The notes beneath the pieces were generated by a model. It made no database searches. It saw nothing but the letters and a program-made list of their open reading frames with translations, and was not told where the DNA came from. A stretch of DNA of 38,688 nt from Methylococcales bacterium (lineage in GTDB: Bacteria; Pseudomonadota; Gammaproteobacteria; Methylococcales; Methylomonadaceae). The first letter of the stretch is position 1; every line of letters begins with the position of its first letter. The stretch is taken from positions 1-38,688 of the forward strand of contig JAGLUC010000345.1 in NCBI GenBank assembly GCA_023134955.1. Direction: 5' to 3'. The position numbers were made by a program, and so were the translations under genes. Positions 18,001 through 35,845 of this stretch are shown piece after piece.

Positions 18001-21000
18001 TGTCGGTGGACGAATTATCGACTTGACTGGTAAACAAGTCGGAACAGATTTGAGTGCGTTACGTGTCGACTTATCGGATACAGTCAGCGATCAACGGCTA
18101 GATGTTACCAGTGCCGGCGCAGTTTTTGTTAAAGAAATTGATGGTGATTTATGGGTCGGTGAAATCGTTGCTGGCGCAGGGGAAGAGGCTACCTTAACAG
18201 CGCACAATTCAATTTTACGGGCTTCTTCAGGTACATCATTAATTACCGGTGGTGAAATTAATCTAACTGCTGACAGTGGCGATATTGGTAACGCGACCTC
18301 GCTGCTTTCTATTAATACAGGAGCCAGAGAGGGCGACAACCTTTCTGCTTATGCCACGGGTGGTATTCATATTTCAGAAACTGCAGGAGACTTGCGCCTG
18401 TTTGAAATTTTAGCAGGAGGCGATGTAACCGTTGAGGTTTTGGGCGGTAATTTGCTTGATGGCAATACAACTGAGATTAACGATGACCGAGCCATTGAAG
18501 AGTTACGTAACTCTGTGTGGGCTGATTTGCAGTTGACTGATTATGCCGATGGCGTGTTGACAGGAGCGGCATCTGCCAAAATTCAGGAAACTAAAGATTC
18601 TTTATCTAATGCTAAAACAAGCGAATATAAGACTTATTGGTCATGGCGGATGGTGCAAAGTGATCACCTTGTATTCCGTGTAGGCTCAGGCGTTTATGAT
18701 GGTTTTGCATTATTACAAATGAGTACTGATGAGCTGGCGTTTTATGATGATTTCTATCGCCAGCAAGGTATTGATGATGGGTTGTCGGGTGTGGCTCTTG
18801 ATGATTTTGTTGATGCAGCAGTATTAACTCTGCTAACGACACGAACTGAGCAATACCGTACTCTGGATGCTACCTATGGTAGTGATGGTGGCAGCGATGG
18901 AGATGTGGATACTTTTGATGAAGAGTATCTGGTCGCATTGACTCAAGCAGAAATTGAAGCGATTGAGGCCTCTATTAAAATTTGGACAGAAGAAGAGCTT
19001 ATTAATGGCATTGGTATTGGTATTCTTAAACCTGTAACGGATACTGATATTGTTATTGAAGACCCTAATATAGTCGGCTCAGCCATTACCTTAAATGTTT
19101 CTGGCTCTATTGGGCGTACAGGCGGACAGGAACTCATTCCGATTACAGCAGGTGGCAATTTAACCGAAGAGCAACGAATTACTCTAGGTGCTGCAGAACG
19201 CGACGATGTTTTTTATCTAGTCACAGATCGTGAACAGGCCACCGTTAATTTTGATGCTGGAAATAATACTATTACGCGTACATCGGGAACCTGGGGTTCT
19301 GAGTTTGTAGCAGGAATGGTCATTCAGGTCGAAGGCACGACTGCTAATGCAACTGAAGAAGGGCCTTTCTATACCATTCTTAGTGTAGTGGGAGGTACGA
19401 TTACAGTCGATGGTAGCCGTACAGCTCTGACCAGCACCGAGTCTTTAGAAAGTGTGCATGTTTCTGGTATTGCACTTGATCCTCGCGGTGTTACTGTCGA
19501 TGTTACAGCCAGTGTTTCTGGTGGCAACACAATTATCCGTAGTAGTGGAGAAGATTTTTCAGGTTTGTTTGCAGGTATGAAAATATTACTTAGCGGCGAT
19601 ACGGTAAATGGTAATGATGCTGATTCATTGTATGAGATTCAATCAGTCTCAGGTAATGTGATTACGTTGCTAGGAACACCTGGATTGACCAATGAAACAA
19701 GTATTTCATTGGTTGTAGACCAATACGTAGAGTTGGTTGCTGTACAAGTACAATTACGTGAAGATCTTGATATTGTAGCCAGTGGTGTTGTTACACTCAA
19801 TGCGGGTAACGAGACATTTATTGGTACGGAATCAAATATTACTCTGAATGAAGTGAATGTTGCTGGGAACTTACGGATTAAAGCTAATGGCTCAATTCTT
19901 AATGGCTTAGATGGTAGTGCGACTAATATTATTAGTGATAATTTACTATTAGAGGCTGGTTCTGGTTCTATCGGTGCGGTTGGTTCAGATAACCGTATAT
20001 ATCTTGATCTAGGTGCTACATCCACTGTCATTGCAAGAGCTTTGGGTGATATCGTATTAACAGAGCGAACCGGTGATATGAATGTTGCGACACTGTTCTC
20101 TAAATCGGGTGATGTCGATTTGGTGTCGAATGGCTCTATTCTGGATGCCATTGCCGAAGATTTTGTAAATATAGAAGCCAATGATATTCGCTTTGAAGCT
20201 GGTGCAAGTATTGGTGCTGATGGTAACGCATTGGATATTGAAGCACGGGGTGATGGTTCTGCGCTTGGCAAAGGTCTACTGACGGCAACAGCAGTAGGCG
20301 ATATATTTATTACTGAAGCCTTTGGCGATATGAATATACGCAATATTCTTTCGACTGCGGGCGATGTTACCCTAACTTCTGCGCTTAGTATTTTTGATGC
20401 AATGGATTTGGTTGATCCTGCTAATCCTAACTTGGGGGATGACTCATTATCAGTCAGCCTGCCAAAAGCAGATGTATTGGGAGATAATATTACCTTAGTT
20501 GCACGATTGGGCTTTATTGGCATAGACGGAAATGAACTCGATATTGATAGTCGTCGAGGTGGTAACGGTTTATTAAGTTCACAAAGTGCACAAAACACCT
20601 ACATTATTGAAACAAGTGGTGATGTCTTTATTGATCAAGTAGGCACTGATGCAATGACTGCATTTATTACTGCAACTGTGGGCGGCATTTATAATGGTGC
20701 GGCACTGGGCGTGTCAAATGTAACGGGTGGTCGAGCATTCCTATCAGCTAATACCAATATAGGTACATCTGCTAAACGTCTCTTTACTCAGATTGGTACT
20801 ATTCAATCTATTTCCATAACAGGCTCAACTTTTGTTACTAATGATGGCGCATTAGATATTAATCAAATTAGGGGTGCTGTAGGGCAGATCGCTGGTGGCG
20901 ATATAAATACTATGGCTTCAAGTCCAGTGACTGTCTTAGCAGATATGATTGCAGCAGGAAATATTACAGTTGATGCCAATGAAAGTGCGGCAAATGACTA

Positions 21001-24000
21001 TGATGTTATTACCGTGAATTCAGGCGTTACCGTCGATGCAGGCGGCAGTATTTTCTTTAATGCTGGTGACCACATTGTTGTACAGAGTGGTGCGACAATT
21101 GAGGCGAATAATGATATTACATTTAATACCGATGTAGCTAATCTGGATGCTGGCGGTGGTGATATTACCATTACAGGATTAGTTGATGCCATTGCTGGCA
21201 CAGTTACCTTGGCATCAAACAGTGATAACGATAGCTTTGTAGTCGATGGTGCTATTAAGGCTGGTGATCAGGTGCTGGTAACAATGGGCAATGGTGCGGA
21301 TACTTTTATAGTTACAGGTAGCATATTGTCAAATGCGCTACTTTCAGTAAATACCGGTGCTGGGAATGATGTTTTTACAGTTATCTCGGGTGGCTTACTG
21401 CAATCTAATAGTGGCAATGTCGAAATTAATACTGAAGCCGGGGAAGATACCCTGCTCGTTGCCGAAACAGGAACGCTAGCAGGAACGAGTATTGCTATTG
21501 CCAGTGGCGATAGTAATGACCAAATTACTATCGAAGGTATGCTAGATGCTGGAACCAGCACTATATTGATTGATGCGGGAGCGGGTGAGGATGTTGTTTT
21601 ATTAGATACGCCTATTTTGATTGGTCAAACCACTGTATTCGGTGGTGCTGACGATGATTTGATTACAGTAAACAGATTACCTACACAGGGTGCAACGGAT
21701 ACCTTAATGCTAGATGGTGGTGAAGGAAATGATGATCATATTGTCAACCTGACTGACCCAGCAACAGTTGCAGGGCTAGGTACTGAATATAGAATAGATG
21801 TCTTTGATACAGGGATAGGCGACACCGATACGCTTACCGTTAATGGCACAGCATTAGCAGATAACATTCTGATGCGTGCGAGTGAAAAACAGAAAGTAGA
21901 TGGTGGAGTAGCTTTTGTTGCTGCGTTACATAACGATGATCCAACCATTGCCGTTGAGCGGATTAATTACGACAAGGGGCTCGAAGAACTAATCGTTGAA
22001 ACTGGAGATGGTGATGATAATGTTAGTCTTGATGATAACTGGGTCACTACAACGGTTCGGGGTGGTGCAGGTCAGGATAATTTTCAGATTGGACAAATTT
22101 TTAAAACAGCACGTGATGCTGCAAATGCCAATATTGCATTAGAAGATGAGTTTGAGACAGTTTTATCAACGCGTGGGCATTTGAGTAACGGTGTTAGTTT
22201 TGAGACAACAATTGAAGGCGGTGATAATGAGGATACTTTCGTGGTATTCCGAAACTCTGCCAGACTGAATTTATTTGGTGATGACGGTGATGACTTGTTT
22301 GTTATTCGCTCATTTGCAGAAGAAGGTTCTAGTGATAGCGACATTGACCTTGGAGAAGGTGCAGATACCGTTGAATATGTTTCTAATGCGGCTGTAAATG
22401 TTATCGGTGGAAATGGTAATGATACTTTGCAGTTTATCGGTACTGAGTTTGGTGATGACTTTCTGATTACCAACAATAGTATCAGAGGTGCTGGGCGAAC
22501 TATTACTTACCAAGAAATAGAGAATCTTGAGATTGATGGTGCAGAAGGCGATGATAATTTCTTTGTTTTCTCAACCAATGAAAACGTTATAACCAAATTG
22601 TTTGGCGGCCTTGGTAATGACAGCTTCAGTATCGGAGGTGACAGTGGATCAGTTGTTGTCGCTGATAATGCGATAGAGGCGGAACAAGAAGGCCCACATA
22701 ATGTCGCGGGAATATTGGGTGCTTTAGAAATTTATGGTTTTTCTGGTAATGGTACAGCTGGTGGCTTAGGCGACCCAGTGATGCTACCTGGCGAAACTAA
22801 TGTTCTACCATCAGATGGTACAGTGCTTGGCTACCAAGTGGGTGATAACACTGACGATACCATGACTGTTTTAACAAGTGCATTGCAAACGGTAATTAGC
22901 AATGATGAGGACCTAGATGATTTACAAAGTTTAATAGGGCAAACGCTGGAAATCAGTAGTGGTGCTGGAATATCCCGTTTCTGGGCGATTACAGCAGTTG
23001 TTGATAATAATGGCACTAATACAACACTGAGTTTGCAAAATCCAACACTACCCGCAGAAGAGTGGGAAGACCCTACCATAGGTAGTGAATATGCCATTAC
23101 CCATTTATCAGCAAATTTCTTTGTTGATGAATCCTTGGCTTTAGATAAAGTGACTGTTTTTAATGATGGCAGCAGCTTGAATTCGAGTGGACTACTGACA
23201 GCAAATACACTCACTGGACTTGATATGGTCGCTGTGGGCATTAGCTATGGTGATTTTGAAGCCTTTGAGTTGCTATTAGGCACAGGCAATGATGATTTTA
23301 CGGTGGATTCTACTGCAGATGGTGTGATTACGGCGATACATGGTGGTGCGGGTGATGATCTGATTACCATTAATAGTCGAGGTGGTTTAGATAGTCGTGG
23401 ACTGGATGGTTCATTGGTCGTTTTTGGCGATACCACTCAAGATGGTAGCCGATATATAGACAGTAACACTGTGCTTTTACCTGGTTTTGCATACGGTTTT
23501 GATACGGTGGGAAACGACACTATTGATGCTTCATCTGCTGTCAAAATGGTTTCAATCTATGGCGGCGGCGGTAACGATATTATTATCGGTAGTCAGGCTG
23601 GAGATCATCTTGCAGGTGGTTCTGGTGATGATGTAATTACTGGCTTGGATGGTTTAGATCATATCTATGGTGATTCAGGTATTAATCTTGAGCTTGATAC
23701 GCGAGTACTCACGATAGTGACAGTGGACACGAGTTCGGAAGATGCCAGAGATGTATTATTAGCAGGTAGCGACATAATAGATGCTGGCGAGGGTGATGAT
23801 ATTATTTTTGGTGACCATGGGATTATCGACCAAACTGTGAATACAGTTAGAATCCTTAGCACATCAAATATAGAGCGGATTAGCACCACTGAAGAGACAG
23901 TTGGTTTAGATGATATTATTATCGGTGGTTTGGGTAATGATCGGATTCTAGCGGGTAATGCCGAAGATCAAGTTACTGATTTAATGGATAATAATATTAT

Positions 24001-27000
24001 CTTGGGCGATCATGGTTATATTGACTATGTATCAATAGATGGTGATCTGAGTGATATTGATGTAATAGAAAGTACTTCTACCACCGTAGGCGGCGGCAGT
24101 GATGGCATCCGCAGTGGTTTTGGCAACGACATTATTCTAGGCGGACGCTTTGGCGACCAAATCAACAGCCTGGGTGGTGACAACCTCATCCTTGGTGATA
24201 GCGGTAGTATTACCGCCGCCAATACTGGTACAGCACAACTGGCAGGACAATCCATCACTCTAGGGTTAATTACCAGCACCGAATTTGATGACGGCGGTGC
24301 CGACACCATCACCACCGGTGCAGGTCAAGACATCGTATTGGGCGGAGATGAAGGCGATATTATAGCTACAGGTGATGGCAGTGATATTGTACACGGTGAT
24401 AACGCGCGTCTGGATTACACCAGTGGTAGTTCAATTACACTTGATTTAATTGAAACGCTTGCTAATGATATAGGCGGTGAGGACATCATTCGAGGTGAAG
24501 GTGCCGATGATATATTAATTGGTGGTACTTTAGCTGACCGCATTGATGGTGGTAGCGAAGAAGATCTGATTTTTGGCGATAATGTTAATCTGGATCGTAG
24601 CGCTACTTATGGTAATTTTACTAATCTACGATTCCAGACATTGACGGGCTCCGAAATTTACGGCAGTGGTTTAAATGTGAATGGTTTTGTTGAAGGAGAA
24701 GTGTTGATTAGTAATACTGCACAACTTGATCCACAGGGCATGTCTGCATTTTGGTCTGATTTCCAGATTACATTGCTTGACCATGATGATGCTAGTAATA
24801 CAAACAAGTTCGGTGACGATTATATTGCCGGTGGCGCTAATGATGACCAAATATTTGGTCAGTTGGGTAATGATGTAATTCAGGGTGATGGCACTATTGA
24901 CCTGAATGTATCAGCGGCTCGGTTAGCAGCAGATGGAACGCTTAGTCTGAGTGCCTCGGTGGAAGATTTTGATCATTTTGATGAGTCAAACTTGGTCTTC
25001 TCTGTTGAAGGTAATGATGGTGATGACTATATCGAAGGTAATGGCGGTGATGATGTTATTTTTGGTAACCTTGGTCAAGATGACATTATAGGTGGCAGCT
25101 CGACGTTATTTAGCCTTGATAGCCAAGGTCACCGTCCAGATGGAGCCGATTTGCTTTTTGGTGGTGCAGGTGTTGATGTTATTCGAAATAATTTGGGTGA
25201 TATTAGCCATGCTGTCGATTCCGACATGATTCTGGGTGATAATGGCAATATCTATCGACTAGTCACTGGCGGCACGAGTAATGCTTATCTTGGTTTTACT
25301 TATGATAACTATGGTGGAGAAAAAATCATTGTGCGTGCGGCAGAACTTATTGACTACACAGCAGGTGAAGCTCACCTGGATGTCAATGGACTGAGTTCGG
25401 ATATCGGTGCTGCAGATGAGATTCATGGTGAGTCGGGCGATGATTTTATTTATGGCATGGTCGGTAATGATGTTTTATTCGGTGACGGCCAGGATGATGA
25501 CCTAATCGGTGGCTATGGCCATGACTGGATATCAGGTGGTACTGGCGATGATGGCATACTTGGTGATGATGGTTTGATTTATACCAGTAGAAATGGTGTA
25601 ACAGGAGAGTCTTTATATGGTATAGGCGCTGTTGTAGAACAAACAATCAGTACACCAGGAGATTTTCAGCAAGCTACTATTAATGTTTTAGGCGAGCTTA
25701 AAAAGACTGTTAATTTAACACCTTTTAATGTTGACCTAAATACAGCACTTCAAGACCACTTATATGATGCTCAGTTTGCTGATGACATAATCTATGGCGG
25801 CTGGGGAAATGATTTTTTACATGGTGGTTCTGGTGATGACGCTATTTCCGGAGCAGAAGCATTAAATAGTTTCTACTCTGTACCGAGTAATTTAGGTGAT
25901 GAACTAGGCTATAACAGTTTAATAGTGGGGGAATTTGTCGCTTATGACGAATTTAACCCATTACTTAAAATTAATAACTTCTTCCTTAATTTTAATGCTG
26001 GTGAAGGTGAGGTAGTGCTTGGGGAAGCAGTCCTAACTGATGGTAATGACCGGATATTCGGTGACCTGGGTAACGACTGGCTAGTCGGGGGAACAGGAAG
26101 AGATCATCTATATGGAGGTTATGGTGATGACCTACTCAATGCCGATGATAATCTTGACAGCAATGGCGGTCTCAATGATGTTCCAGATGGCCCTCAAGCC
26201 TCTTACGAGGATTTGGCATTTGGTGGCGCTGGTCGCGATATATTAATAGCCAATACAGGTGGCGACCGCTTGATAGATTGGGCAGGGGAATTTAACAGCT
26301 TTGTTGTACCTTTTGCACCCTTTGGTTTAGGGACAGTCAGCCGGGCTTTGCAACCACAAATTGCAGACTACCTCTATGATTTATCAGCAAGTGATGGTGC
26401 GGATTCGACTCGTGCTGCTGATACTGGTACAAATATTGCCAGAAATGGGGAGCCAGATGGTGAGCTAGGTCTCGTTACACAGCAAGATACTGATTGGCAA
26501 GATCAGACTGGAGCACCTGCTGATCCACAACCTGGTAATGTGGCAGGCGGTGCGCGTGACGTATTGCGAAGTGCTACTTCAAATCTATTGGCACAAGAAG
26601 CGGCCATAATAATATCTGCAGAAGAGTTAAGTCAGATACAATTAACAGAGATTGTTAATACGGCTAAATCATCTTGGCAAGAATCAAGATTATTAAATCA
26701 AGCATCACTTTCCAAATTAGATAAAGTGGAGATAAGAATTGCTGATCTAAATGGTTTGAAACTAGGTCATACAGCGGGTAATAGCATCTATATAGATATT
26801 AATGCAGCGGGTCACGGCTGGTTTATAGATACCACGCCAGATATTAACGAGGAATACCAACGCAATGGCGAAGAATATAGCCTGACAGCACTAAATAATA
26901 CTGCGGCTAGTGATAATATGGATTTACTCACAGTAGTTAAACATGAGTTAGGACATATTTTGGGCTATGCACATGATAGTAATGGTGGTTTAATGGAAGA

Positions 27001-27418
27001 TACCTTACAGGTCGGTGAGCGAAAACTAATAGTACCTGAGGCGCTAAACTTCACAAGTAATGTAAAATCGGATAGTGCTACAACGCTTTCAAAAATAGTG
27101 GAAAAAGCAACATTTAGTGCTAAAAAATTACTTGGCATTAGCACACAACAAGGAAATATTGATTTTCAATATTTTGATGAGCTATTTGGTGTCTTTAATA
27201 ATCAGGAGGTCACTATAGAACCTGAGGATAGCAAAGAAGACTTTTTGATCTTTAGTAATGATAAAAACCAGGATGGTAAAGAAAACCATGCAACCCAGTA
27301 TCAACTAAGAAAAGGGCATGAATCTAATGGCTCAGATCAACGAGCAACGGAAAATAAAGCTGAAGGAAGAGAAACGGAACTCACTGTTTTAATTGACTGG
27401 AGTGACGGAGAAGACTAG
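11..27418 (+). CDS. Giant secreted-type repeat protein (at least 9135 aa, probably 5'-partial): beta-solenoid-like repeats, RTX-type GGxGxD Ca-binding block, C-terminal HExxHxxGxxH zincin-like module
   Basis: A 27.4 kb stop-free frame in AT-rich DNA cannot arise by chance. Codons 2-10 (aat ttt aat) are also open, and the first residues ([17 protein letters not shown]) already sit inside a repeat that recurs near aa 7500 ([18 protein letters not shown]), so the TTG at 11 is probably not the true start. There are dozens of GGxGxD nonapeptide-like motifs between roughly 21590 and 26290. [11 protein letters not shown] is at 26942..26974. The stop codon TAG is at 27416..27418. Confidence 0.9.
   Translation: [9135 protein letters not shown]
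2630..2940 (+). repeat. Copy A of a ~310 bp near-identical dispersed direct repeat inside the giant ORF
   Basis: It aligns base-for-base with 6269..6579 at a constant offset of 3639 bp (1213 codons). I count about 16 mismatches, 7 of them in a patch at 2701..2720. A perfect 114 bp run covers 2747..2860. Confidence 0.85.
6269..6579 (+). repeat. Copy B of the ~310 bp near-identical dispersed direct repeat inside the giant ORF
   Basis: See copy A. Immediately outside the tract, identity falls to the level of the other paralogous modules; for example 2590..2629 versus 6229..6268 differ heavily. Confidence 0.85.
11051..11476 (+). repeat. In-frame tandem duplication, 2 x 213 bp (71 codons), inside the giant ORF
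   Basis: Unit 1 (11051..11263) and unit 2 (11264..11476) encode [35 protein letters not shown]....YDM..QDFS..DLWEQIN twice. The first ~180 bp of each unit are roughly 85-90% identical, with perfect runs such as ttaactaaaaatgtaacgacagtagaagtgct. Confidence 0.85.
21590..26290 (+). repeat. RTX-type (hemolysin-type calcium-binding, GGxGxD) nonapeptide repeat-coding block of the giant ORF, interrupted by non-RTX inserts
   Basis: Examples are [40 protein letters not shown] (about 23561..23680), [49 protein letters not shown] (about 25429..25575), and [20 protein letters not shown] (ending about 26280). Looser G.G.D.(F/L).(V/I) units run from about 21000. Boundaries are approximate. Confidence 0.8.
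26942..26974 (+). other. Zincin metalloprotease signature [11 protein letters not shown] (HExxHxxGxxH) in the C-terminal module of the giant protein
   Basis: The in-frame codons cat gag tta gga cat att ttg ggc tat gca cat were read directly. The next residue is D, and a Met (GGLMED) follows 7 residues after the third His, a candidate Met-turn. Confidence 0.7.
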
Positions 27419-27497: not shown

Positions 27498-28283
27498 ATG
27501 AGCACACAACTATTAATCTACGAACGCGCAGAACCCATCAGTAAACAGAAACATAGCAACTGGTCAGTAAAAACAGGTGGTAGTTACGATTTTACAAAAA
27601 ATATTAATTCAGCGCCATTAACTGCAGTAGAATTTCCTAATGCATCTACGGAATACAGTATTGTTTTTGCTGGCAATGATGATGCTGTTATGCCAGCAGT
27701 TATATTAGGCTTACGAGACCAGGAAAACCTGTATTTATCAGAAGATGGAAAATGGAACAGTAAATATATCCCTGCTTTCATTCGTCGGTATCCATTTGTA
27801 TTCTCCAGTAGTAATGAAGCTAAACAATTTACCCTCTGCATAGATGAAGAGTTTTTGGGCTGCAACCAAGACGGTATAGGTGAACGACTGTTTGATACCG
27901 AGGGAGAACAGACCCAATACTTAAAAACAGTTTTAAATTTTTCCAGTGAATACCAAGGTCAGTTCAACCGAACTCAATTATTCTGTAAAAAATTAAAGGA
28001 ACTGGATTTGTTAGAGCCTATGCAAGCACAGTTCACCCTGCCAACAGGGGAAAAAATGAACTTAGGCGGGTTTCAGGCGGTCAGTCGTGAGCGCTTAAAA
28101 AAACTAAGCAATGAACAGTTAGGAGAACTAGCTAAAACGGATGAGCTAGAATTGATTTATCTGCACTTGCAATCGATGAGAAATTTCAATGCTATGGTGG
28201 CTCGGGTTCCTGAAAGTGATGCGAGCTCAAATGTTGCAAAAGACTCTAAGAAAGAAAAACTATCTAAAAAAGATATGCATTAA
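27498..28283 (+). CDS. SapC-family protein
   Basis: The 261 aa ORF has an N-terminal half (LLIYERAEPISKQKH..., APLTAVEFPNASTEYSIVF, YIPAFIRRYPFVF) that matches my recollection of the conserved SapC-family core (YxPAxxRRYPF). It starts 79 bp after the giant ORF on the same strand, with no convincing terminator between them. Confidence 0.75.
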   Translation: MSTQLLIYERAEPISKQKHSNWSVKTGGSYDFTKNINSAPLTAVEFPNASTEYSIVFAGNDDAVMPAVILGLRDQENLYLSEDGKWNSKYIPAFIRRYPFVFSSSNEAKQFTLCIDEEFLGCNQDGIGERLFDTEGEQTQYLKTVLNFSSEYQGQFNRTQLFCKKLKELDLLEPMQAQFTLPTGEKMNLGGFQAVSRERLKKLSNEQLGELAKTDELELIYLHLQSMRNFNAMVARVPESDASSNVAKDSKKEKLSKKDMH

Positions 28284-28649: not shown

Positions 28650-30803
28650 ATGAGTAATGTTTTTTCCAAAATTATGGATGAAAATCGTAATGAATATAGG
28701 GTTCCTGTTGAACCAGGAACTACGGTTATTATTCATAGTGGTGACAGGGAAATTGTCGGGACAATTGAGGATAAGTCCGAGGGTGGACTAGGTTTAAGAA
28801 TACCAGAAGCTTTTAAGCAGTATATAGATCAAAATACTGTTGTGACCATGACTTACAGTATGCCTTATGGACTAGTCAGCCATCAAGCGCAGGTCTGTTG
28901 GAGTAACTCAGATAAAGCAGGTGAATTAACGATAGGAACAAGGTTTCTTGAGGCTGAGCCTGGCTTTCAAACAGACTATCAAAAATTATGGAAAGACTTT
29001 ATTGATGCGGAGAAGCTGGAAGATGTGGCTCGTTTTTGGTTGAGTCTTCAATCGGCAATGATTAGTGGGGTTACCCGTGCGGTTGTGGTGTTAGGTGAGC
29101 CAGGGGGTGAAGTATTTTCTCCAGTTGCATTTTGGCCGGAAGCACAAACCGGAGTAATTGGGCTAACCGAAGTTGCAGAACTGGCTTTACAAGAAAAACG
29201 TGGGGTGTTGAGAGATGAGGGACAATACAACAAAGACCTGAATATTCGAGTTTGTTATATTGGTTTCCCACTAATGCTGGATGAGAAACTGTGTGGTGTG
29301 GTGGCTATAGAAATAGTTGTTCGTCCAGAACCTTTGATGCGTGCAGTTATGCGTCAGCTACAATGGGGGACGGCATGGATAGAGTTAATTATTCGCCGTA
29401 TTGATGGCAAAAAATACACCCCTGAAAATCAGCAATTAGTTACCGTTCTGGAACTGATAGCGACGAGCTTGGAACATGATAGTTTTCAGGCGGCGGCAAC
29501 CAGCGTTGCCACAGAACTAGCAACTATTTTGGAATGTGAGAGAGTAAGCATTGGTTTTTTGGTAGGGAAGTATATGCAAGTTGAAATCTTGTCTCATAGT
29601 ACCGATTTTACGAAAAAATCAAAATTGGTTCAGAGTCTTGGCTTGGCGATGGATGAAGCAATGGATCAACAAACTTCTCTTGTTTTTCCTGCGCGTGAGG
29701 ATGACACGGTAAAAATTCTAAAGTGTCATGAAAAATTATTACAGGAACAAGGTAGTAGTGGTGTTTGTACAATTCCTTTGTGTAATAAAGGCAAGGTATT
29801 TGGTGCTTTAACAATGGAGCGTTCATCGGGCGATTTATTTGCTAAAGATACTGTCGATTTATGTGAAACCATCGCCTCTCTTGTTGGTCCTATTTTAGAG
29901 GCAAAACGAAGGCAAGATTTGTGGTTAGTCATTAAGTTTGGCTTGTCGATAAAAGAATTTATATTTAAGCTCACAGGGCCGGATCATGCAGGGTTTAAAG
30001 TTATAAGTGCAATTTTTGCGGTAGCAATTTTATTTTTTATCTTTGCAACAGGAAGTTTTCGAGTTGCTGCAGATGCCTATCTTGAAGGCTCTATTCAGAG
30101 GGTTATTGTTACACCGTTTAATGGTTATATCAGTGAAGCCTATGTCCGTGCCGGTGATGTGGTAAAAAAAGGCTCACCTTTAGTAAAACTGGATGATAAT
30201 GACTTATTGTTGGAGAGAGCTAAATGGAAAGGGCAGAAAGAACAGTATAGAAAAGAATATCGTGAGGCACTGGGTAAAGCAGAACGCAGTAAAGTCAGTG
30301 TGTTAAAAGCGCGACTTCGGCAAGTGGATGCACAGCTTGCGATGATGGATGCTCAATTATCTCGTATACGGGTTAATGCACCTTTTGATGGCATTATTGT
30401 TTCGGGTGATTTAAGTCAATCTTTGGGTTCCCCTTCTCAGCGAGGGGATGTGTTGTTTGAAATTGCACCATTAGATGCTTATCGAGTGATATTGGAAGTG
30501 GATGAGCGAGATATTTCAACGATTAATGTAGGTCAGTCAGGCGAGTTAGTTTTAACGGGTCATAGTGATAGAGTTATTGCTTTTAAGGTTAAAAGTATTA
30601 CACCTGTTTCTGAGGTTAAAGAAGGACGTAATTATTTTCGAGTAGAAGCAAAATTGAATACTCAAATTGATGATTTACGCCCAGGGATGAAAGGTGTAGG
30701 TAAGATTATAATCGGTAAACGTAATTTAATCTGGATATGGAGCCGACCTCTCCTTGACTGGTTGCGATTGAGTTTGTGGACTTGGTGGCCACAAGGCTTA
30801 TAG
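28650..30803 (+). CDS. PilZ domain + two GAF-like domains + single TM + HlyD-family membrane fusion protein (periplasmic adaptor)
   Basis: The PilZ signature is RNEYR (RxxxR, 28686..28700) plus DKSEGG (DxSxxG, 28770..28787). Residues ~125-420 resemble two GAF-like modules. A hydrophobic helix FKVISAIFAVAILFFIFATGSF covers aa 449-470. The C-terminal ~240 aa have MFP organisation: a lipoyl-like half (VRAGDVVKKGSPLVKLD), a short coiled coil, NAPFDGII, then beta-barrel segments. Confidence 0.85.
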   Translation: MSNVFSKIMDENRNEYRVPVEPGTTVIIHSGDREIVGTIEDKSEGGLGLRIPEAFKQYIDQNTVVTMTYSMPYGLVSHQAQVCWSNSDKAGELTIGTRFLEAEPGFQTDYQKLWKDFIDAEKLEDVARFWLSLQSAMISGVTRAVVVLGEPGGEVFSPVAFWPEAQTGVIGLTEVAELALQEKRGVLRDEGQYNKDLNIRVCYIGFPLMLDEKLCGVVAIEIVVRPEPLMRAVMRQLQWGTAWIELIIRRIDGKKYTPENQQLVTVLELIATSLEHDSFQAAATSVATELATILECERVSIGFLVGKYMQVEILSHSTDFTKKSKLVQSLGLAMDEAMDQQTSLVFPAREDDTVKILKCHEKLLQEQGSSGVCTIPLCNKGKVFGALTMERSSGDLFAKDTVDLCETIASLVGPILEAKRRQDLWLVIKFGLSIKEFIFKLTGPDHAGFKVISAIFAVAILFFIFATGSFRVAADAYLEGSIQRVIVTPFNGYISEAYVRAGDVVKKGSPLVKLDDNDLLLERAKWKGQKEQYRKEYREALGKAERSKVSVLKARLRQVDAQLAMMDAQLSRIRVNAPFDGIIVSGDLSQSLGSPSQRGDVLFEIAPLDAYRVILEVDERDISTINVGQSGELVLTGHSDRVIAFKVKSITPVSEVKEGRNYFRVEAKLNTQIDDLRPGMKGVGKIIIGKRNLIWIWSRPLLDWLRLSLWTWWPQGL

Positions 30804-30818
30804 CCTAGGCAACAAGTT

Positions 30819-32966
30819 ATGGCTGAGTCTATGTTTAGCTCTTCTTGGTATCGTATTGCTGGGTTAAAACCTAGGTTAAGAGCCCATGTGCAGATTTCTA
30901 GGCATCATTATCGTGGTCAGTTGTGGTATGTATTACAGGATAGGGCTAACAGTCAAAACCATCGGTTTTCACCACAGGTATACTATGTTTTATCATTGCT
31001 GGATGGTAAACGAAACTTTCAGACTATCTGGAATCTAGCATTGGAGCAGCTAGGGGATGATGCGCCTAGCCAAGATGAAATGATTAAATTGTTGGGACAA
31101 CTTCATAGCAGTGATTTATTGTTGTGTGATGTCCCTCCCGATACACTGGAACTATTTCATAGGTTTGAAAAAAAACAATGGGGAAAATGGAAGCAAAAGA
31201 TTTTCAGTCCTTTGTCAATCAGACTGCCTTTATGGGATCCAGATGCTTTTCTTGAACGCTGGCTGTTTTTAGTTTTACCTTTTGCAGGTTGGTTAGGTAA
31301 GCTGATATGGGGTGTTGTAATAGGCACAGCTATTGTATTGGTTGCATCCAATTGGGTTGATCTGTCAGAGGGTGTGGCTGATCGTGTTTTAGCTCCCAGC
31401 AACTTGTTGTTACTATTCTTTATTTATCCTGTAGTAAAATTTTTACATGAACTCGGACATGCTTTTTCAACCAAAGTATGGGGCGGAGAAGTGCATGAAA
31501 TGGGGATAATGTTATTAGTATTTATGCCCGTTCCTTATGTAGATGCCTCTAGTGCATGGTCTTTTCGAGATAGAAAAAAAAGAGCTATTGTCGGTGCTGC
31601 GGGTATGGGGGTTGAACTATTTCTAGCCGCTTTAGCTTTGTTTGTCTGGTTAAATGTTGAGCAAGGCATGGTAAGCGCTATAGCTTATAATATTATGCTG
31701 GTTGGAGGTGTCTCCACGTTATTTTTTAATGGCAATCCACTACTACGTTTTGACGGTTATTATATTTTCTCAGATCTAATAGAAATCCCCAATCTCTCAA
31801 GTCGAGCCAACAATTATATTGGCTACTTGTTTCAACGCTATCTTTTCTCTGTACAACAATTAAATTCTCCTGCATCTTGCACTGGAGAGCAAGTGTGGTT
31901 TGTCTGTTACGGTTTGGCATCTTTTGTATATAGGATGCTGATTAGCTTTACGATTATTCTTTTTGTCGCGGGAAAATTCTTTTTTATAGGTATTGTTTTT
32001 GCGCTATGGGCTGTTTTTTCGATGGTTGTGTTACCCTTGTCGAAACAGGTTAAATTTATTTTTACCAGCCCTGTAATACAGCGCCAGCGTTTAAGAGCAA
32101 TTACAGTCAGCTTTAGCCTGTTAGCTGCTTTTTTATGTTTTCTATTTCTATTTCCAGTGTCTTTTAGCAACTATACCGAAGGTGTGGTATGGCTACCAGA
32201 GCAGGCAGAAGTGCGTGCTCAGACAGAGGGCTTTGTAGTAAATATTCATGTTCAAACCTACTCAATGGTCAAGAAAGGAGATGTTTTACTGGATATGGAG
32301 GATCCCTTGCTTAATTCTAGACAGCTTGTTCTACGCTATCGAATTGACGAATTAAAGGCTCAATATAAAGCTGCTTGGGGTAGGGAGCAAGTGCAAGCAC
32401 AAATTCTGAGGGAACAAATTGAGGTGATTAAAGTAGAGTTAGCTCAATTGAATGAACGTATTAATGACTTAACTTTACGAAGTCGGTCTAGTGGTTTATT
32501 TGTTGTTTCCCAAGCAAATGATTTGATAGGAAGCTTTTTAAAAAAGGGCGACTTGGCAGCTTATATTGTCAATTTTCCTGTTACCACTATTCGTGCTGTT
32601 GTGACGCAAGATAATATAGGTTTAGTTAGAGAATTTACAAAAAATGTGGAAGTTCGATTAGTTGATGATATGAAAAATTTATATGTTGCTAAAGTCGTTA
32701 GAGTGGTACCCGCAGCATCAGATAGATTGCCTAGTCCCGCTCTGGGATATAAAGGTGGCGGCTTAATACCAACTGATCCGTCATCTGGAGAAGGTGACAA
32801 AGCTTTTGAACCAGTATTTCATATTGAACTGGAATTTCCTGCTGAGGCTAATGTCAGAAACCTGGGAGGGCGAGCGTATGTGCGTTTTGATTTTGGCACT
32901 GAGCCACTTGCTTGGCAGTGGTATAGATTAGCTAGGCAGCTATTTTTAAGACAATTTAGTGTTTAG
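30819..32966 (+). CDS. Peptidase M50 (site-2 protease family) membrane core with PqqD/RRE-like N-terminal domain and HlyD-like C-terminal domain
   Basis: HELGH is at 31446..31460 inside a hydrophobic segment. The second S2P motif NPLLRFDG (NxxPxxxxDG) is at 31734..31757. Multiple hydrophobic helices cover aa ~150-450. The C-terminal ~250 aa are MFP-like (VKKGDVLLDMEDP, coiled coil LRYRIDELKAQYKAA...QLNERINDL). The start lies 15 bp after the preceding stop. Confidence 0.85.
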   Translation: MAESMFSSSWYRIAGLKPRLRAHVQISRHHYRGQLWYVLQDRANSQNHRFSPQVYYVLSLLDGKRNFQTIWNLALEQLGDDAPSQDEMIKLLGQLHSSDLLLCDVPPDTLELFHRFEKKQWGKWKQKIFSPLSIRLPLWDPDAFLERWLFLVLPFAGWLGKLIWGVVIGTAIVLVASNWVDLSEGVADRVLAPSNLLLLFFIYPVVKFLHELGHAFSTKVWGGEVHEMGIMLLVFMPVPYVDASSAWSFRDRKKRAIVGAAGMGVELFLAALALFVWLNVEQGMVSAIAYNIMLVGGVSTLFFNGNPLLRFDGYYIFSDLIEIPNLSSRANNYIGYLFQRYLFSVQQLNSPASCTGEQVWFVCYGLASFVYRMLISFTIILFVAGKFFFIGIVFALWAVFSMVVLPLSKQVKFIFTSPVIQRQRLRAITVSFSLLAAFLCFLFLFPVSFSNYTEGVVWLPEQAEVRAQTEGFVVNIHVQTYSMVKKGDVLLDMEDPLLNSRQLVLRYRIDELKAQYKAAWGREQVQAQILREQIEVIKVELAQLNERINDLTLRSRSSGLFVVSQANDLIGSFLKKGDLAAYIVNFPVTTIRAVVTQDNIGLVREFTKNVEVRLVDDMKNLYVAKVVRVVPAASDRLPSPALGYKGGGLIPTDPSSGEGDKAFEPVFHIELEFPAEANVRNLGGRAYVRFDFGTEPLAWQWYRLARQLFLRQFSV

Positions 32967-32992: not shown

Positions 32993-34981
32993 ATGGCAGC
33001 CCATTCAAATTTTAAGCCTGGTATTGTTGAAGGATTATATCCTGAGCGGTCTGTGCTAAAAAAAGCTTATCTTGACCAGAAATTGGCTAAAATAGAGGGT
33101 TTTTTCACTCGCTTATTTAAGTATAACCATCGTTCACTTAGCTTTATAGTCCAGTTAGTGAATCAATATTCTGATGAGCTTGAGTTATTGCAAGATCACG
33201 CATTAGACGAACGAATTGAGCATTTAAAATCGAATTTAATCCTGCATGGGCTAGAGGATTTATTGATTATCGAAGCATTTGCCCTGATTAAAGAGGTGGC
33301 TGGAAGAAAGCTGGGAATGCGGCATTATGATGTGCAGCTTATAGGCGGCTGGATTCTTATTAAAGGAATGATCGCTGAAATGGAGACGGGTGAAGGTAAA
33401 ACATTAGTAGCAACGTTGGCGGCTTGTACTGCAGCAATCTCGGGTATTCCTGTCCATGTCATTACGGTGAATGATTATTTGGTTAAACGTGATGCCACTT
33501 TAATGGAGCCAGTTTATAAGGCTTTTGGCTTGAGTGTTGGAATTATTTCTGAAGATATGGATTTAGCTACTCGTCAAATAGCTTATGCTTGCGATATAAC
33601 TTATTGTAGTAATAAACAAGTTACTTTTGATTACCTTAAAGATAAGTTGGTGTTGGGGAGAAAAGGTAGTAACTTTCATTTACAACTCGAAAAGCTTTAT
33701 GCAAAGAAAGCAGCGAAACAGGCGCAGTTACACTTAAGAGGCTTATGTTTTGCAATTGTGGATGAAGCCGATAGTGTTTTTATAGATGAATCAAGAACAC
33801 CATTGATTCTTTCTCGAGAAACTAATTCTCTTGACGAGTTGTATGTTTATCAGCAGGCACTTGAAATTGCAGGGCAATTGAAAGAAGCAAGTGATTTTAT
33901 AATAGATCAGCGAAATCAACATATACAATTAACAGGATCTGGTATTAATCGCATTAAGCAAATGGTTGAGTCACTATCAGGTATTTGGTCGGCGGAAAGG
34001 CGCAGTCGTGAATTAATTGTTCAAGCATTGTCGGCACTATATTTGTTTTTGAAGGATGTTAATTACCTTGTTAAAGATGGAAAAGTATTAATTATTGATG
34101 AATTTACTGGACGTGTGATGGCTGATCGTTCGTGGGAGCGAGGCTTGCATCAGCTAATAGAAACTAAAGAAGGCTGTGAAATGAGTAGGCAAAAAGAAAC
34201 ACTTTGTCGAATTAGCTATCAATCTTTTTTTCAACGCTATCTACATCTTGCGGGGATGACGGGAACAGGAAAAGAAGTGGCGAGAGAATTATTCTCTGTT
34301 TATCGGCAGCCTGTTATTAAGGTGCCTACCAATAAGCAAGGCAAACGGAAACAATTCTGTGCGCGTTATTTCACGACTGCATCACAAAAATGGACGGCTA
34401 TAGTTGAACGTATTGTAGAAATTCATCAACAAGGGCGACCTATTTTAATAGGTAGCCGTTCGGTTGAAGCATCAGAGCATTTAGGGCAATTGTTGACTAA
34501 GAAAAGATTGCCTCATCAATTATTAAATGCTCGACAGGATGCTGACGAAGCAGAAATCATTAAAATGGCGGGTAGTCTAGGGGCGATTACTGTGGCAACG
34601 AATATGGCAGGAAGAGGGACAGATATTATTTTAGCCCCTAGTGTTAATGAAATTGGCGGCTTGCATGTAATTGTCAGTGAATGTCATGAGTCTAGGCGTA
34701 TAGATAGACAGTTATTTGGTCGATGTGGTCGGCAAGGCAATGAGGGCAGTTATGAAATGTTTTTATCATTTGATGATGAAATAGTAACCAAATATACACC
34801 TCTTATCGCGTATGAATTGGCTAAAAAAATGTGTGGATATGGTTATCAAAAAATAGCCGCAGCAGTTTTTTACTTGGCGCAAACACGGGCAGAAAAATAC
34901 CATGCAGCCATCCGTAGAGATTTGCTAAAAATGGATGAGAACTTACAAAACCTGTTAGCATTTTCTGGAAAACCTGAATAG
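32993..34981 (+). CDS. SecA-like ATPase, motor-only paralog (NBD1-PPXD-NBD2; lacks helical wing, two-helix finger and C-terminal tail)
   Basis: MRHYDVQLIGG...EMETGEGKTLVATL (Walker A, 33389..33403) and VHVITVNDYLVKRDA are near-identical in pattern to E. coli SecA. The DEAD box is at 33761..33772. The PPXD-like segment is LVKDGKVLIIDEFTGRVMADRSWERGLHQLIETKEG, followed by MTGTGKE, TNMAGRGTDI and GRCGRQG. The protein ends at 662 aa, within the stretch that aligns to the first long scaffold helix of SecA (E. coli SecA is 901 aa). Confidence 0.9.
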   Translation: MAAHSNFKPGIVEGLYPERSVLKKAYLDQKLAKIEGFFTRLFKYNHRSLSFIVQLVNQYSDELELLQDHALDERIEHLKSNLILHGLEDLLIIEAFALIKEVAGRKLGMRHYDVQLIGGWILIKGMIAEMETGEGKTLVATLAACTAAISGIPVHVITVNDYLVKRDATLMEPVYKAFGLSVGIISEDMDLATRQIAYACDITYCSNKQVTFDYLKDKLVLGRKGSNFHLQLEKLYAKKAAKQAQLHLRGLCFAIVDEADSVFIDESRTPLILSRETNSLDELYVYQQALEIAGQLKEASDFIIDQRNQHIQLTGSGINRIKQMVESLSGIWSAERRSRELIVQALSALYLFLKDVNYLVKDGKVLIIDEFTGRVMADRSWERGLHQLIETKEGCEMSRQKETLCRISYQSFFQRYLHLAGMTGTGKEVARELFSVYRQPVIKVPTNKQGKRKQFCARYFTTASQKWTAIVERIVEIHQQGRPILIGSRSVEASEHLGQLLTKKRLPHQLLNARQDADEAEIIKMAGSLGAITVATNMAGRGTDIILAPSVNEIGGLHVIVSECHESRRIDRQLFGRCGRQGNEGSYEMFLSFDDEIVTKYTPLIAYELAKKMCGYGYQKIAAAVFYLAQTRAEKYHAAIRRDLLKMDENLQNLLAFSGKPE

Positions 34982-34990
34982 GAAATTAGG

Positions 34991-35845
34991 ATGTGTCGAA
35001 TAATAATAAAAAAATCTGTTATCAGCCTATTGCTGGTGCTTTCTAATACAGTATTTGCTGGCAATGGGAAGGTCTTAGATTGTGTGCTGGAGCCGTCAAT
35101 GGTTGTTGAGCTGAGCAGTCAAGTTCGTGGTGTAATTGAGAATATTTATGTTGAACGTACTGATGTTGTTAAAAATGGGCAGCTAGTTGCTAATTTAATG
35201 TCGGGAGTGGAGAAGGTCAGTGTTCAATTGGCTATGGATAGATCGAAAATGGTTGTAGATATAAAATCTAGAAAAGCTGAACAAAAATTTAGAAAGCATA
35301 CCTTCGAGCAGGTAAAAGAGCTTTACAGGAAAAAGCTTGCCTCACAGCGTGAATATGAAGACGCTAAAACCTCAAGTATTGTTGCAGACATTGAACTGGA
35401 AAAAGCTATAGAACTAAAGTACCTGGCAGGTATGGAGTTGAAACGTACTCAAGAGATACTTAAACTTCGTTCTATGCACAGCATGATTGATGGCGTAGTA
35501 GTAGACGTGATGAAGTCACCAGGTGAATTTGTTGAGGAACAACCAGTCATGAAAATCGCTCAAATTGATCCCCTTTTTGTTGAAGTAATCGTACCTGAAA
35601 CATTAATGGGCAGGGTTAAGGTGGGAAAACAATTAAAGGTTAATATTGAAATACCAATAGCAGCTAGCCATTTGGCAACAGTGAGTGCAGTCGATCAAAT
35701 TATTGATGCTACAAGTGGTACCTTTGGGGTACGGCTGATACTACCTAATCCAGATAATAAAATTCATGCGGGTCAACGTTGCCAAGTTGTTTTGGTTGAT
35801 GAACCCCTGAAACTCAACTTAAATAAATATAAAAATAAAAGGTAA
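34991..35845 (+). CDS. HlyD/RND-type periplasmic adaptor (MFP) with cleavable Sec signal peptide
   Basis: The N-terminus is MCRIIIKKSVISLLLVLSNTVFA|GN, with a positive n-region, a hydrophobic core and an AxA-like site but no lipobox. The rest has lipoyl-like halves (VKNGQLVANL ... SMIDGVVVDV), a coiled-coil hairpin, and a barrel segment PLFVEVIVPE...VKVGKQLKV. The start lies 9 bp after the SecA-like stop, with AGGAAATTAGG just upstream of the ATG. Confidence 0.8.
   Translation: MCRIIIKKSVISLLLVLSNTVFAGNGKVLDCVLEPSMVVELSSQVRGVIENIYVERTDVVKNGQLVANLMSGVEKVSVQLAMDRSKMVVDIKSRKAEQKFRKHTFEQVKELYRKKLASQREYEDAKTSSIVADIELEKAIELKYLAGMELKRTQEILKLRSMHSMIDGVVVDVMKSPGEFVEEQPVMKIAQIDPLFVEVIVPETLMGRVKVGKQLKVNIEIPIAASHLATVSAVDQIIDATSGTFGVRLILPNPDNKIHAGQRCQVVLVDEPLKLNLNKYKNKR

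Follow-up and report, generated by a model that had tools for sequence, protein, structure and literature searches.

The window that we analysed (38,688 nucleotides from a Methylococcales bacterium, assembly GCA_023134955.1, contig JAGLUC010000345.1) contains a series of genes on the forward strand that begins with a giant gene. The giant gene (11..27418, +) encodes a repetitive protein of at least 9,135 amino acids whose reading frame is open to the 5' end of the window. It contains LktA_tand_53 repeats and RTX repeats and, near its C-terminus (26618..27016, +), a matrixin-like HExxHxxGxxH domain (PF00413, E 3e-5). The next gene (27498..28283, +) encodes a SapC-family protein (PF07277, E 1e-73), presumably an accessory protein or a chaperone. 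It is followed by a PilZ-GAF-TM-MFP protein (28650..30803, +; Pfam PilZ 1e-9, GAF 3e-11, and HlyD_3 1e-20), whose PilZ domain has the motifs RxxxR (RNEYR) and DxSxxG (DKSEGG). The gene under study (30819..32966, +) is an ATG-to-stop ORF of 715 amino acids. Downstream of it are a truncated SecA paralogue (32993..34981, +; 662 amino acids) and a small periplasmic membrane fusion protein (MFP) with an N-terminal signal-like segment (34991..35845, +; 284 amino acids; TIGR01730 RND_mfp, E 8.5e-32, which is above its cut-off). Neither TolC nor DUF3467 is encoded in the window.

The original prediction was that the 715-amino-acid protein is a fusion of a PqqD-like RiPP recognition element (RRE), an M50 site-2-protease core, and a HlyD-like domain, and our analysis confirms this. 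The N-terminal part (30870..31124, +; amino acids 18-102) is a PqqD/RRE-like domain that is followed by a K/R-rich helical linker (amino acids ~107-129). By itself, the sequence hits Pfam PqqD (PF05402) only at E 0.075, which is below the gathering score. However, a 52-sequence profile of amino acids 1-145 finds PqqD structures as its three best PDB hits (3g2b at E 3.3e-4, covering 83 of 95 residues, and then 5sxy and 5vrd). Also, many homologues carry precomputed PF05402, and NCBI names some of them 'PqqD family peptide modification chaperone'. The AlphaFold2 (AF2) model of this region has a β3α3 fold (β24-31, β34-41, β46-50, α52-59, α67-81, and α85-97), and Foldseek matches it to RRE-containing RiPP proteins (TfuB1 6jx3_B with a TM score of 0.70, TbiB1 5v1v with 0.68, and TruD, LynD, ThcOx, MibB, CteB, and SuiB), although with modest E-values (2e-3 to 0.1).

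The membrane core (31281..32159, +) has seven predicted TM helices plus a re-entrant β-hairpin (amino acids 228-241). HELGH (31446..31460, +; amino acids 210-214) lies in helix 193-220, and NPLLRFDG (31734..31757, +; amino acids 306-313), which carries the third zinc ligand, Asp312, follows helix 284-304. Both motifs lie at the cytoplasmic ends of predicted TM helices. They are not chance matches: H210, E211, H214, N304, N306, P307, L308, and D312 are invariant in 102 homologues with 36-82% identity. This invariance also led us to reject the idea that the M50 domain is an inactive scaffold. Nevertheless, this is a divergent member of the M50 family: its score for Pfam Peptidase_M50 (PF02163; 24.6 bits, E 1.8e-5) is below the gathering score of 27.2, although many homologues are listed with PF02163. 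A Foldseek search with the full-length model was dominated by MFP hits, with no S2P structure in the top 50, and the only solved S2P found by sequence profile was 3b4r, at E 0.64. The M50 assignment therefore rests on the Pfam and NCBIfam matches and on the invariant motifs.

The C-terminal part (32160..32963, +; amino acids 448-715) is a predicted periplasmic MFP domain. It scores above the cut-off for Pfam HlyD_3 (23.7 versus 22.2), and HlyD_D23 matches amino acids 462-632. In the AF2 model (pLDDT 88.7), it has a lipoyl-like domain, an α-hairpin (496-520/524-549), and a β-barrel, and it matches MexA, MacA, AcrA, EmrA, and ZneB (Foldseek E 3e-11 to 1e-8). Profile searches also hit MacA and HlyD (8dck). 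The predicted topology is N-in/C-out: K+R is enriched in the loops that are assigned to the cytoplasm (4.0, 5.3, and 2.3) and depleted in the loops that are assigned to the periplasm (0.9, 0.0, and 0.6). This puts the RRE and the HExxH/NPxxxxDG site on the cytoplasmic side and the MFP domain in the periplasm, so that the parts of the fusion are on compatible sides of the membrane.

The family is very large, with at least 7,994 homologues and 4,316 clusters at 50% identity (E < 1e-30). Nearly all of these are about 715 amino acids long, and they come from many phyla. The gene sits in an almost invariant cassette, in the order GAF-MFP, RRE-M50-MFP, SecA-like, and small MFP, which is exactly the order in the window. 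We found this synteny across Gamma-, Beta-, Alpha-, and Deltaproteobacteria, Nitrospirota, Myxococcota, Rokubacteria, Methylomirabilia, and Acidobacteriota. A GAF-MFP lies directly upstream in 72 of 72 loci with enough flank, the SecA-like gene follows directly in 65 of 69 loci, and a same-strand ORF of at least 1,500 amino acids is present in 28 of 34 loci of at least 20 kb. (Families 2, 3, 5, 11, and 12 in our ORF clustering were discarded as antisense or shadow ORFs of GC-rich genomes.) DUF3467 or SapC is sometimes present: SapC is found in 14 of 80 loci, and in the window it occupies the slot that DUF3467 fills in most related loci. TolC is encoded in the operon in Methylosinus pMSC49a, Thalassospira marina, E. 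coli plasmids, and six genome loci. In contrast, there is no ABC transporter in the window or in the annotated operons of relatives that we inspected.

The closest relative of the first two domains is the daptide RRE-S2P leader peptidase MpaP/DapP (NCBIfam NF041824; PMC10036551), which aligns end to end over amino acids 18-405 (E 4.6e-43). MpaP removes an N-terminal leader that ends in an ELDP/ELExMEAP-type motif, which resembles ELEPRxLL. However, the score of 147.8 bits is half of the equivalog cut-off of 300, our protein has an additional periplasmic MFP domain of about 270 amino acids, and none of the daptide genes (DUF-RRE, decarboxylase, aminotransferase, methyltransferase, or short Thr-ending precursors) is in the window. 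Also, our family occurs in Gram-negative and other diderm lineages rather than in Actinomycetota or Bacillota, and its presumed substrate has thousands of residues. The original prediction had drawn an analogy to YydH, which is more distant. The YydH/LiaK/EpeP proteases, which are proposed both to cleave and to help export a peptide (PMC10885120), match only the catalytic core (NF058609, amino acids 195-332, E 6e-9, 36 bits versus a cut-off of 225), have no RRE and no MFP, and are found in Firmicutes.

The original prediction also suggested that this protein recognises a leader, cleaves it, and hands the product to an MFP tunnel, with either a hidden peptide or a terminal segment of the giant protein as the cargo. 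The comparative evidence fits this scheme and favours the giant protein. In 86 loci, no family of ORFs of 25-110 amino acids recurs except for DUF3467 and its shadow frames. In contrast, all 13 cassette-linked giant proteins whose N-termini we could read begin with a basic stretch followed by (E)LEPRxLLSAD: the motif is present in 12 of 12 aligned leaders and also in Mesorhizobium ciceri. NCBIfam LEPR-XLL (NF012209) hits above its curated cut-off in 5 of the 6 N-termini scanned, and PGAP itself names the upstream giant proteins 'LEPR-XLL domain-containing protein'. These leaders have no hydrophobic core, so we rejected the possibility that they are Sec signal peptides. The N-terminus of the window's own giant protein lies upstream of the window, and the leader is not shown for this protein. 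That protein has long homology to the annotated LEPR-XLL giant protein of Pontibrevibacter (E 4e-59), and its matrixin-like domain, which is conserved across 16 loci and shared by many cassette-linked giant proteins, is found in the Mesorhizobium ciceri plasmid in the same protein as an N-terminal LEPR-XLL leader. A search of metagenome contigs with the first 400 amino acids of the window's giant protein found no relative, and a search for homologous proteins with its first 600 amino acids scored nothing at E ≤ 1e-20, but the window's contig seems not to be in those collections, or giant proteins are not indexed.

Given these observations, we propose, with moderate confidence and without experimental evidence for binding, cleavage, or export, that the 715-amino-acid protein is the inner-membrane hub of a dedicated, envelope-spanning apparatus that processes and secretes the neighbouring giant protein. 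The RRE domain would bind the leader as an added β-strand, as RREs do in RiPP pathways, and the M50 active site, which opens towards the cytoplasmic face, would remove it; the latter is inferred from the invariant catalytic residues and from the homology to MpaP. The SecA paralogue contains NBD1, PPXD, NBD2, and the start of the scaffold helix (Pfam SecA_DEAD 4e-99, SecA_PP_bind 7e-30). It is most similar to SecA2 of C. difficile (E 1e-132) and aligns to amino acids 13-609 of the 781-amino-acid SecA2 6t4h. It retains the Walker/DEAD motifs and the polypeptide clamp but lacks the helical-wing domain, the SecY-engaging two-helix finger, and the C-terminal tail. Like the SecA2 systems, it appears to be dedicated to a special substrate, but it is linked to S2P-MFP and MFP genes rather than to SecY2 or Asp proteins. 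We propose that it feeds the unfolded chain, N to C, into a membrane assembly that is formed by the M50 helices. This is the weakest step: S2P proteases are not known to form protein-conducting channels, and the SecA motor cannot be universally required because four genome loci, Thalassospira, and the E. coli/Citrobacter plasmid variant lack the SecA paralogue. The fused MFP domain, the PilZ-GAF-MFP, and the small MFP would form the periplasmic tunnel to a TolC-family channel, as inferred from the architecture, and the PilZ/GAF module would place the process under the control of c-di-GMP or a small ligand.

In its logic, the proposed system resembles a peptidase-containing ABC exporter of the type I kind (for example, colicin V CvaB/CvaA/TolC), in which a non-Sec leader is probably recognised and cut at the transporter before the cargo passes through MFP and TolC. 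Here, an RRE-S2P-MFP fusion plus a SecA-like ATPase would take the place of the ABC transporter and its C39 cysteine peptidase, and the cargo is giant rather than a small bacteriocin. Classical RTX/adhesin type I secretion (HlyB-HlyD-TolC; LapBCE) also handles giant, repetitive, RTX-containing proteins, with MFP and TolC (which are present in related operons, TolC only in some of them) and, in the Lap system, a link to c-di-GMP. However, in our cassette the conserved signal is N-terminal rather than C-terminal, three different MFP proteins are present, and TIGR01843 type_I_hlyD scores only 28 bits against a cut-off of 209.

An alternative that we consider unlikely, but less so than the others, is that the giant protein is exported C-terminus-first by an unlinked ABC-type type I system via its RTX region, and that the fusion protein only holds and later cuts the LEPR-XLL segment at the inner membrane, under c-di-GMP control, to decide whether the adhesin stays tethered or is released (Lap-like logic with a different protease). 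The RTX repeats, the PilZ and GAF domains on the partner MFP, the GGDEF/EAL genes nearby in five loci, the cassettes that lack the SecA paralogue, and the classically regulatory role of S2Ps would fit this explanation. However, we found no ABC transporter in the window or in the inspected operons, a SecA paralogue with an intact preprotein clamp usually follows the fusion gene, and three MFP modules plus a TolC that is encoded in the operon in some relatives look like a complete conduit rather than a tether. Also, the protease site faces the cytoplasm, not the periplasm, where a LapG-type release would occur.

It is much less likely that the system matures and exports a small ribosomal peptide whose precursor is encoded elsewhere or is too short to notice, with the giant gene as an unrelated neighbour. 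The best family hits are indeed RiPP leader peptidases, the RRE fold is typical of RiPP pathways, and M50 proteases mature epipeptides (PMC10885120), but the scores are far below the equivalog cut-offs, the cassette has no modifying enzymes, and no short ORF recurs in the 86 loci apart from DUF3467. Furthermore, the giant gene, and specifically its leader, co-occurs with the cassette across phyla, and the preprotein clamp of the SecA paralogue is suited to long unfolded chains. The least likely explanation is that the three MFPs serve an RND, ABC, or MFS pump that is encoded elsewhere and that the M50 and PqqD parts are incidental or inactive. This is suggested by database names ('HlyD family efflux transporter periplasmic adaptor subunit' and 'efflux RND transporter periplasmic adaptor subunit') and by the RND_mfp score of the small MFP. 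But there is no pump gene in the cassette in any inspected locus, the gene is almost always linked to the SecA paralogue and usually lies near a giant gene, and the catalytic M50 residues and many RRE residues are invariant or nearly so, so these parts are under selection.

We found no paper that describes this system. LEPR-XLL appears in two papers only in passing, and a preprint on the Chlorochromatium giant proteins mentions SapC next to giant genes but not this cassette. More tentatively, the cassette could be a previously unrecognised type of Gram-negative protein secretion system that is dedicated to giant LEPR-XLL proteins, with a SecY-independent SecA paralogue as the motor and an N-terminal RiPP-like leader as the targeting signal. 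RRE-type leader recognition, which is so far known only for small natural-product peptides, would then also be used to target proteins of around 10,000 residues.

How bacteria export proteins of 5,000-10,000 or more residues is only partly understood, and the known route is the ABC-driven type I system. This gene family is found in thousands of genomes from many phyla, including cultivable Pseudomonas, Azotobacter, Marinobacter, Vibrio, rhizobia, and methanotrophs, and in a variant form on E. coli/Citrobacter IncHI1B plasmids, and it points to a possible second route that is built from unexpected parts. The proposed role would also explain why the LEPR-XLL leader, which NCBI flags as a domain but for which we found no functional literature, exists. 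Finally, this reading would extend RiPP-style leader recognition to protein secretion and would give a SecY-independent role to a SecA paralogue.

The window contains an uninterrupted ATG-to-stop ORF of 715 aa at 30819..32966 (+ strand), with HELGH at aa 210-214 and NPLLRFDG at aa 306-313. Pfam matches this protein to Peptidase_M50 (aa 206-314, E 1.8e-5, just under the gathering score), HlyD_D23 (aa 462-632), and HlyD_3 (above its cut-off). The best NCBIfam hit is the daptide biosynthesis intramembrane metalloprotease NF041824, which covers aa 18-405 against profile positions 1-364 of 379 (E 4.6e-43, 148 bits, cut-off 300); YydH/LiaK NF058609 follows (E 6e-9). In an alignment of 102 homologues with 36-82% identity, H210, E211, H214, N304, N306, P307, L308, and D312 are invariant. 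Thus, the two zinc-site motifs are real and under selection.

The N-terminal domain is harder to identify from one sequence, which hits Pfam PqqD only at E 0.075, but the family gives a stronger result. Many homologues carry precomputed PF05402, and NCBI names some of them "PqqD family peptide modification chaperone." A profile of aa 1-145 from 52 homologues finds PqqD structures as its three best PDB hits, the best being 3g2b (E 3.3e-4, aligned over residues 12-94 of 95). AlphaFold2 models (full length: pLDDT 88.7, pTM 0.74; N-domain alone: pLDDT 78) show three strands (24-31, 34-41, 46-50) followed by three helices (52-59, 67-81, 85-97). When we compared the modeled N-domain to the PDB with Foldseek, the hits were mostly RRE-containing RiPP proteins: TruD, TfuB1 with its leader (6jx3_B, TM 0.70), TbiB1 (5v1v, TM 0.68), LynD, ThcOx, MibB, MadB, CteB, and SuiB. 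(The E-values are modest, the probabilities are mostly 0.84-1.00 but lower for SuiB and two CteB chains, and the top hit is a GdmN sub-domain.) These results agree with the original prediction that the start of the protein resembles a PqqD-type recognition fold.

Hydropathy and the AlphaFold2 secondary structure agree on the predicted topology. A cytoplasmic RRE and a K/R-rich linker helix are followed by TM1 (~158-177), TM2 (193-220, with HExxH near its cytoplasmic end), a beta-hairpin (228-241) like the membrane-re-entrant loop of S2Ps, TM3 (252-279), TM4 (284-304, ending in NPLLRFDG), a cytoplasmic helical insert, TM5-TM7 (357-443), and the MFP domain. Across the 102 sequences, the loops assigned to the cytoplasm carry 4.0, 5.3, and 2.3 K+R on average, while the loops assigned to the periplasm carry 0.9, 0.0, and 0.6. 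Seven TM helices with the N-terminus inside place the protease site at the cytoplasmic face and the MFP in the periplasm, so the two are on compatible sides of the membrane, as the original prediction required. As for the MFP domain itself, the full model matches MexA, MacA, AcrA, EmrA, and ZneB (Foldseek E 3e-11 to 1e-8), and the family profile hits MacA (E 1.7e-8) and the HlyD of the HlyB/HlyD complex 8dck (E 1.1e-6). The alpha-hairpin (496-520/524-549) is about as short as that of MexA and AcrA.

The fusion is common. A word-indexed search found at least 7,994 homologues, almost all of 714-716 aa, and an exhaustive HMMER scan of 50%-identity representatives found 12,487 at E<=1e-3 and 4,316 at E<=1e-30. 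All but a few truncated entries among the top 150 are full length, at 37-49% identity. Thus, the three-part architecture is an ancient, conserved unit and not a local fusion. The names given to these proteins vary ("putative peptide zinc metalloprotease," "biotin/lipoyl-binding protein," "HlyD family efflux transporter periplasmic adaptor subunit," "PqqD family protein," or "site-2 protease family protein").

All of the genes in this region are on the + strand, with gaps of 10-366 nt. The first is a giant ORF (11..27418) of at least 9,135 aa, whose frame is open to the 5' end of the window (there is no stop between that end and nt 11). The first 2,000 residues visible (11-6010) have no Pfam hit but have eight matches to NCBIfam LktA_tand_53 ("tandem repeat-containing filamentous protein"). 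The giant protein also has RTX repeats and, about 130 aa from its C-terminus (26618-27016), a matrixin-like HELGHILGYAH domain (…NAAGHGWFIDTTP…MDLLTVVKHELGHILGYAHD…). From there to the stop at 27418 is a tail with short conserved motifs (F/YD…G.F and, close to the C-terminus, (I/V)(D/N)W). The same module lies near the C-terminus (at most ~260 residues from it) of giant proteins in 16 other cassette loci, and it also occurs in large proteins on cyanobacterial plasmids (Calothrix, Nostoc, Aulosira). It may be a self-processing or release domain.

The giant gene is followed by SapC (27498..28283; PF07277, E 1e-73), a 717-aa PilZ-GAF-TM-MFP protein (28650..30803), the fusion protein, a 662-aa SecA paralogue (32993..34981), and a 284-aa MFP with a signal-like N-terminus (34991..35845). 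The PilZ domain has the canonical RxxxR (RNEYR) and DxSxxG (DKSEGG) motifs, although most orthologues of this protein have only GAF. The SecA paralogue aligns with residues 13-609 of the 781-aa C. difficile SecA2 (E 1e-132), so it has NBD1, the preprotein cross-linking domain (PPXD), NBD2, and the start of the scaffold helix, but it lacks the helical-wing domain, the two-helix finger, and the C-terminal tail. It is probably unable to work with SecY. In public records it is variously named "DEAD/DEAH box helicase," "prepilin peptidase," or "preprotein translocase subunit SecA."

To see whether this arrangement is conserved, we examined six loci found through three homologues and 80 genome loci from Gamma-, Beta-, Alpha-, and Deltaproteobacteria, Nitrospirota, Myxococcota, Rokubacteria, Methylomirabilia, and Acidobacteriota (individual loci are labeled L001, L003, and so on), called ORFs in them, and scored these against the window's proteins. 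A GAF-MFP lies directly upstream of the fusion gene in 72 of 72 loci with enough flank, the SecA paralogue lies directly downstream in 65 of 69 such loci, and a small MFP usually follows. Of 34 loci of >=20 kb, 28 hold a same-strand ORF of >=1,500 aa, which is a slight over-count in GC-rich genomes. Clustering of the flanking ORFs found four recurrent families: DUF3467 (about 27 loci including shadow frames), SapC (14), a TolC-like family (6), and GGDEF/EAL proteins (5). GGDEF/EAL or cyclase genes lie near the cassette in L005, L006, L012, L053, and L084, and L001 has a guanylate-cyclase/PilZ gene; together with the PilZ and GAF domains, this suggests second-messenger control. The slot between the giant gene and the cassette (27498-28283 in the window; L001 7616-7927, L003 7592-7915, L087 17744-18064) is filled by DUF3467 (~105 aa, motif WDDSKMxTTYANxxN…LSDRIVLNPYAAKRL) in most loci and by SapC in this window and a minority of loci. 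The two may be alternative chaperones or adaptors. In some Rhodobacterales, SapC sits between the fusion gene and the SecA paralogue.

Annotated plasmid records show the whole operon. Plasmid pMSC49a of Methylosinus sp. C49 encodes an 8,847-aa giant protein, DUF3467, an MFP, a "PqqD family protein," the SecA paralogue (misnamed "prepilin peptidase"), an MFP, and TolC. Pontibrevibacter has a 10,603-aa "LEPR-XLL domain-containing protein," DUF3467, an MFP, the fusion, the SecA paralogue (as "DEAD/DEAH box helicase"), and an MFP. Thalassospira marina has a 4,033-aa LEPR-XLL protein, DUF3467, an MFP, the fusion, an MFP, and TolC, but no SecA paralogue. Mesorhizobium ciceri has a 10,518-aa giant protein, DUF3467, two MFPs, the fusion, and the SecA paralogue. 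A distant variant is carried by IncHI1B-type plasmids of E. coli, Citrobacter, and Hafnia (26 records; for example L091, E. coli plasmid NZ_CP060066.1, 28430-46016, and L093). Here the order is a 3,668-aa Ig-like giant protein with N-terminus MTTIKNRRLRPRAHRFALESRQLFDGA, TolC, MFP, MFP, and a 710-aa M50-MFP (24% identity, with HELGH and NASPFMRFDG present), again without a SecA paralogue. This variant could be a convenient genetic model.

Wherever the N-terminus of a cassette-linked giant protein lies within the sequence examined, it begins with 10-40 mostly basic residues followed by (E/D)x(L/I/M)EPRxL(L/F)SAD, and there is no hydrophobic Sec-type core. This holds for L005, L006, L013, L017, L062 (variant LEEHILYSAD), L072, L081, L082, L084, Methylosinus, Thalassospira, Pontibrevibacter, and M. 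ciceri. Five of the six N-termini that we scanned pass the curated cut-off of NCBIfam NF012209, "LEPR-XLL domain." (The single large flanking ORF without the motif, in L018, has an uncertain start.) The leader is attached to very different passenger architectures: one LEPR-type giant protein (L013 16028-17227, leader LEARLLFSAD) carries a DNRLRE domain (NF033679) about 260 aa from its N-terminus, and other downstream LEPR proteins (L006, L082) have FG-GAP/VCBS-like repeats. For this window's giant protein, whose N-terminus could not be checked directly, the evidence is indirect. Its body is homologous to the Pontibrevibacter LEPR-XLL protein (E 4e-59 and 1e-54 over 400-600 aa), and its matrixin-like domain also occurs in the M. 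ciceri giant protein, which has the leader.

In the daptide system, leader removal is assigned to the RRE-dependent protease MpaP, and the last residues of the leader are E(-8)L(-7)D(-6)P(-5)M(-4)E(-3)x(-2)P(-1), with the logo ELExMEAP (PMC10036551). The resemblance to ELEPRxLL is suggestive but is only an inference. Putting these pieces together, we propose, without experimental evidence for any of these steps, that the RRE captures the LEPR-XLL leader in the cytoplasm and that the M50 site cuts it. The SecA paralogue, which keeps its motor and clamp but lacks the SecY-inserting finger, would feed the chain into a membrane assembly of the fusion protein; three kinds of MFP would build the tunnel to TolC; and PilZ/GAF would gate the process. 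The weakest point of this proposal is the pore and the energy source. Some cassettes (four genome loci, Thalassospira, and the enterobacterial plasmid variant) lack the SecA paralogue. In L033, L054, L067, L084, and the T. marina plasmid (L090), the fusion gene is followed directly by an MFP; in L084 (Marinobacter suaedae), a 1,705-aa LEPR-XLL protein follows immediately. These variants bear on whether the ATPase is essential.

Other roles can be considered. A Lap-like role in retention and release of the giant protein, with export by an unlinked ABC T1SS, remains possible, although we think it unlikely. A RiPP role is disfavored and seems very doubtful: when we clustered all 25-110-aa ORFs outside long genes in 86 loci plus the window, no family recurred other than DUF3467 and its shadow frames, so a RiPP-type short precursor is unlikely. 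A plain efflux role is also disfavored and seems the least likely of the three.

The original prediction of a three-part fusion is correct, and its interpretation, in which a leader is recognized and cleaved and the product is handed to an MFP tunnel, is the best-supported one. Of the cargoes it had suggested (an unseen peptide or a terminal segment of the giant protein), the evidence narrows the choice to the N-terminal leader of the giant protein. We found no description in the literature of the cassette or of LEPR-XLL function. The first two domains of the protein are a divergent relative of the daptide leader peptidase, but the protein is not a member of that equivalog. The third domain is a bona fide MFP, and this architecture is new among RRE-S2P leader peptidases. 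As proposed, the system works like a PCAT-type T1SS, but the ABC transporter that defines a T1SS is absent from the window and from the annotated operons of relatives. Although its function has yet to be demonstrated, the cassette appears to be a new arrangement among MFP/TolC tripartite exporters and may deserve the status of a separate secretion type.
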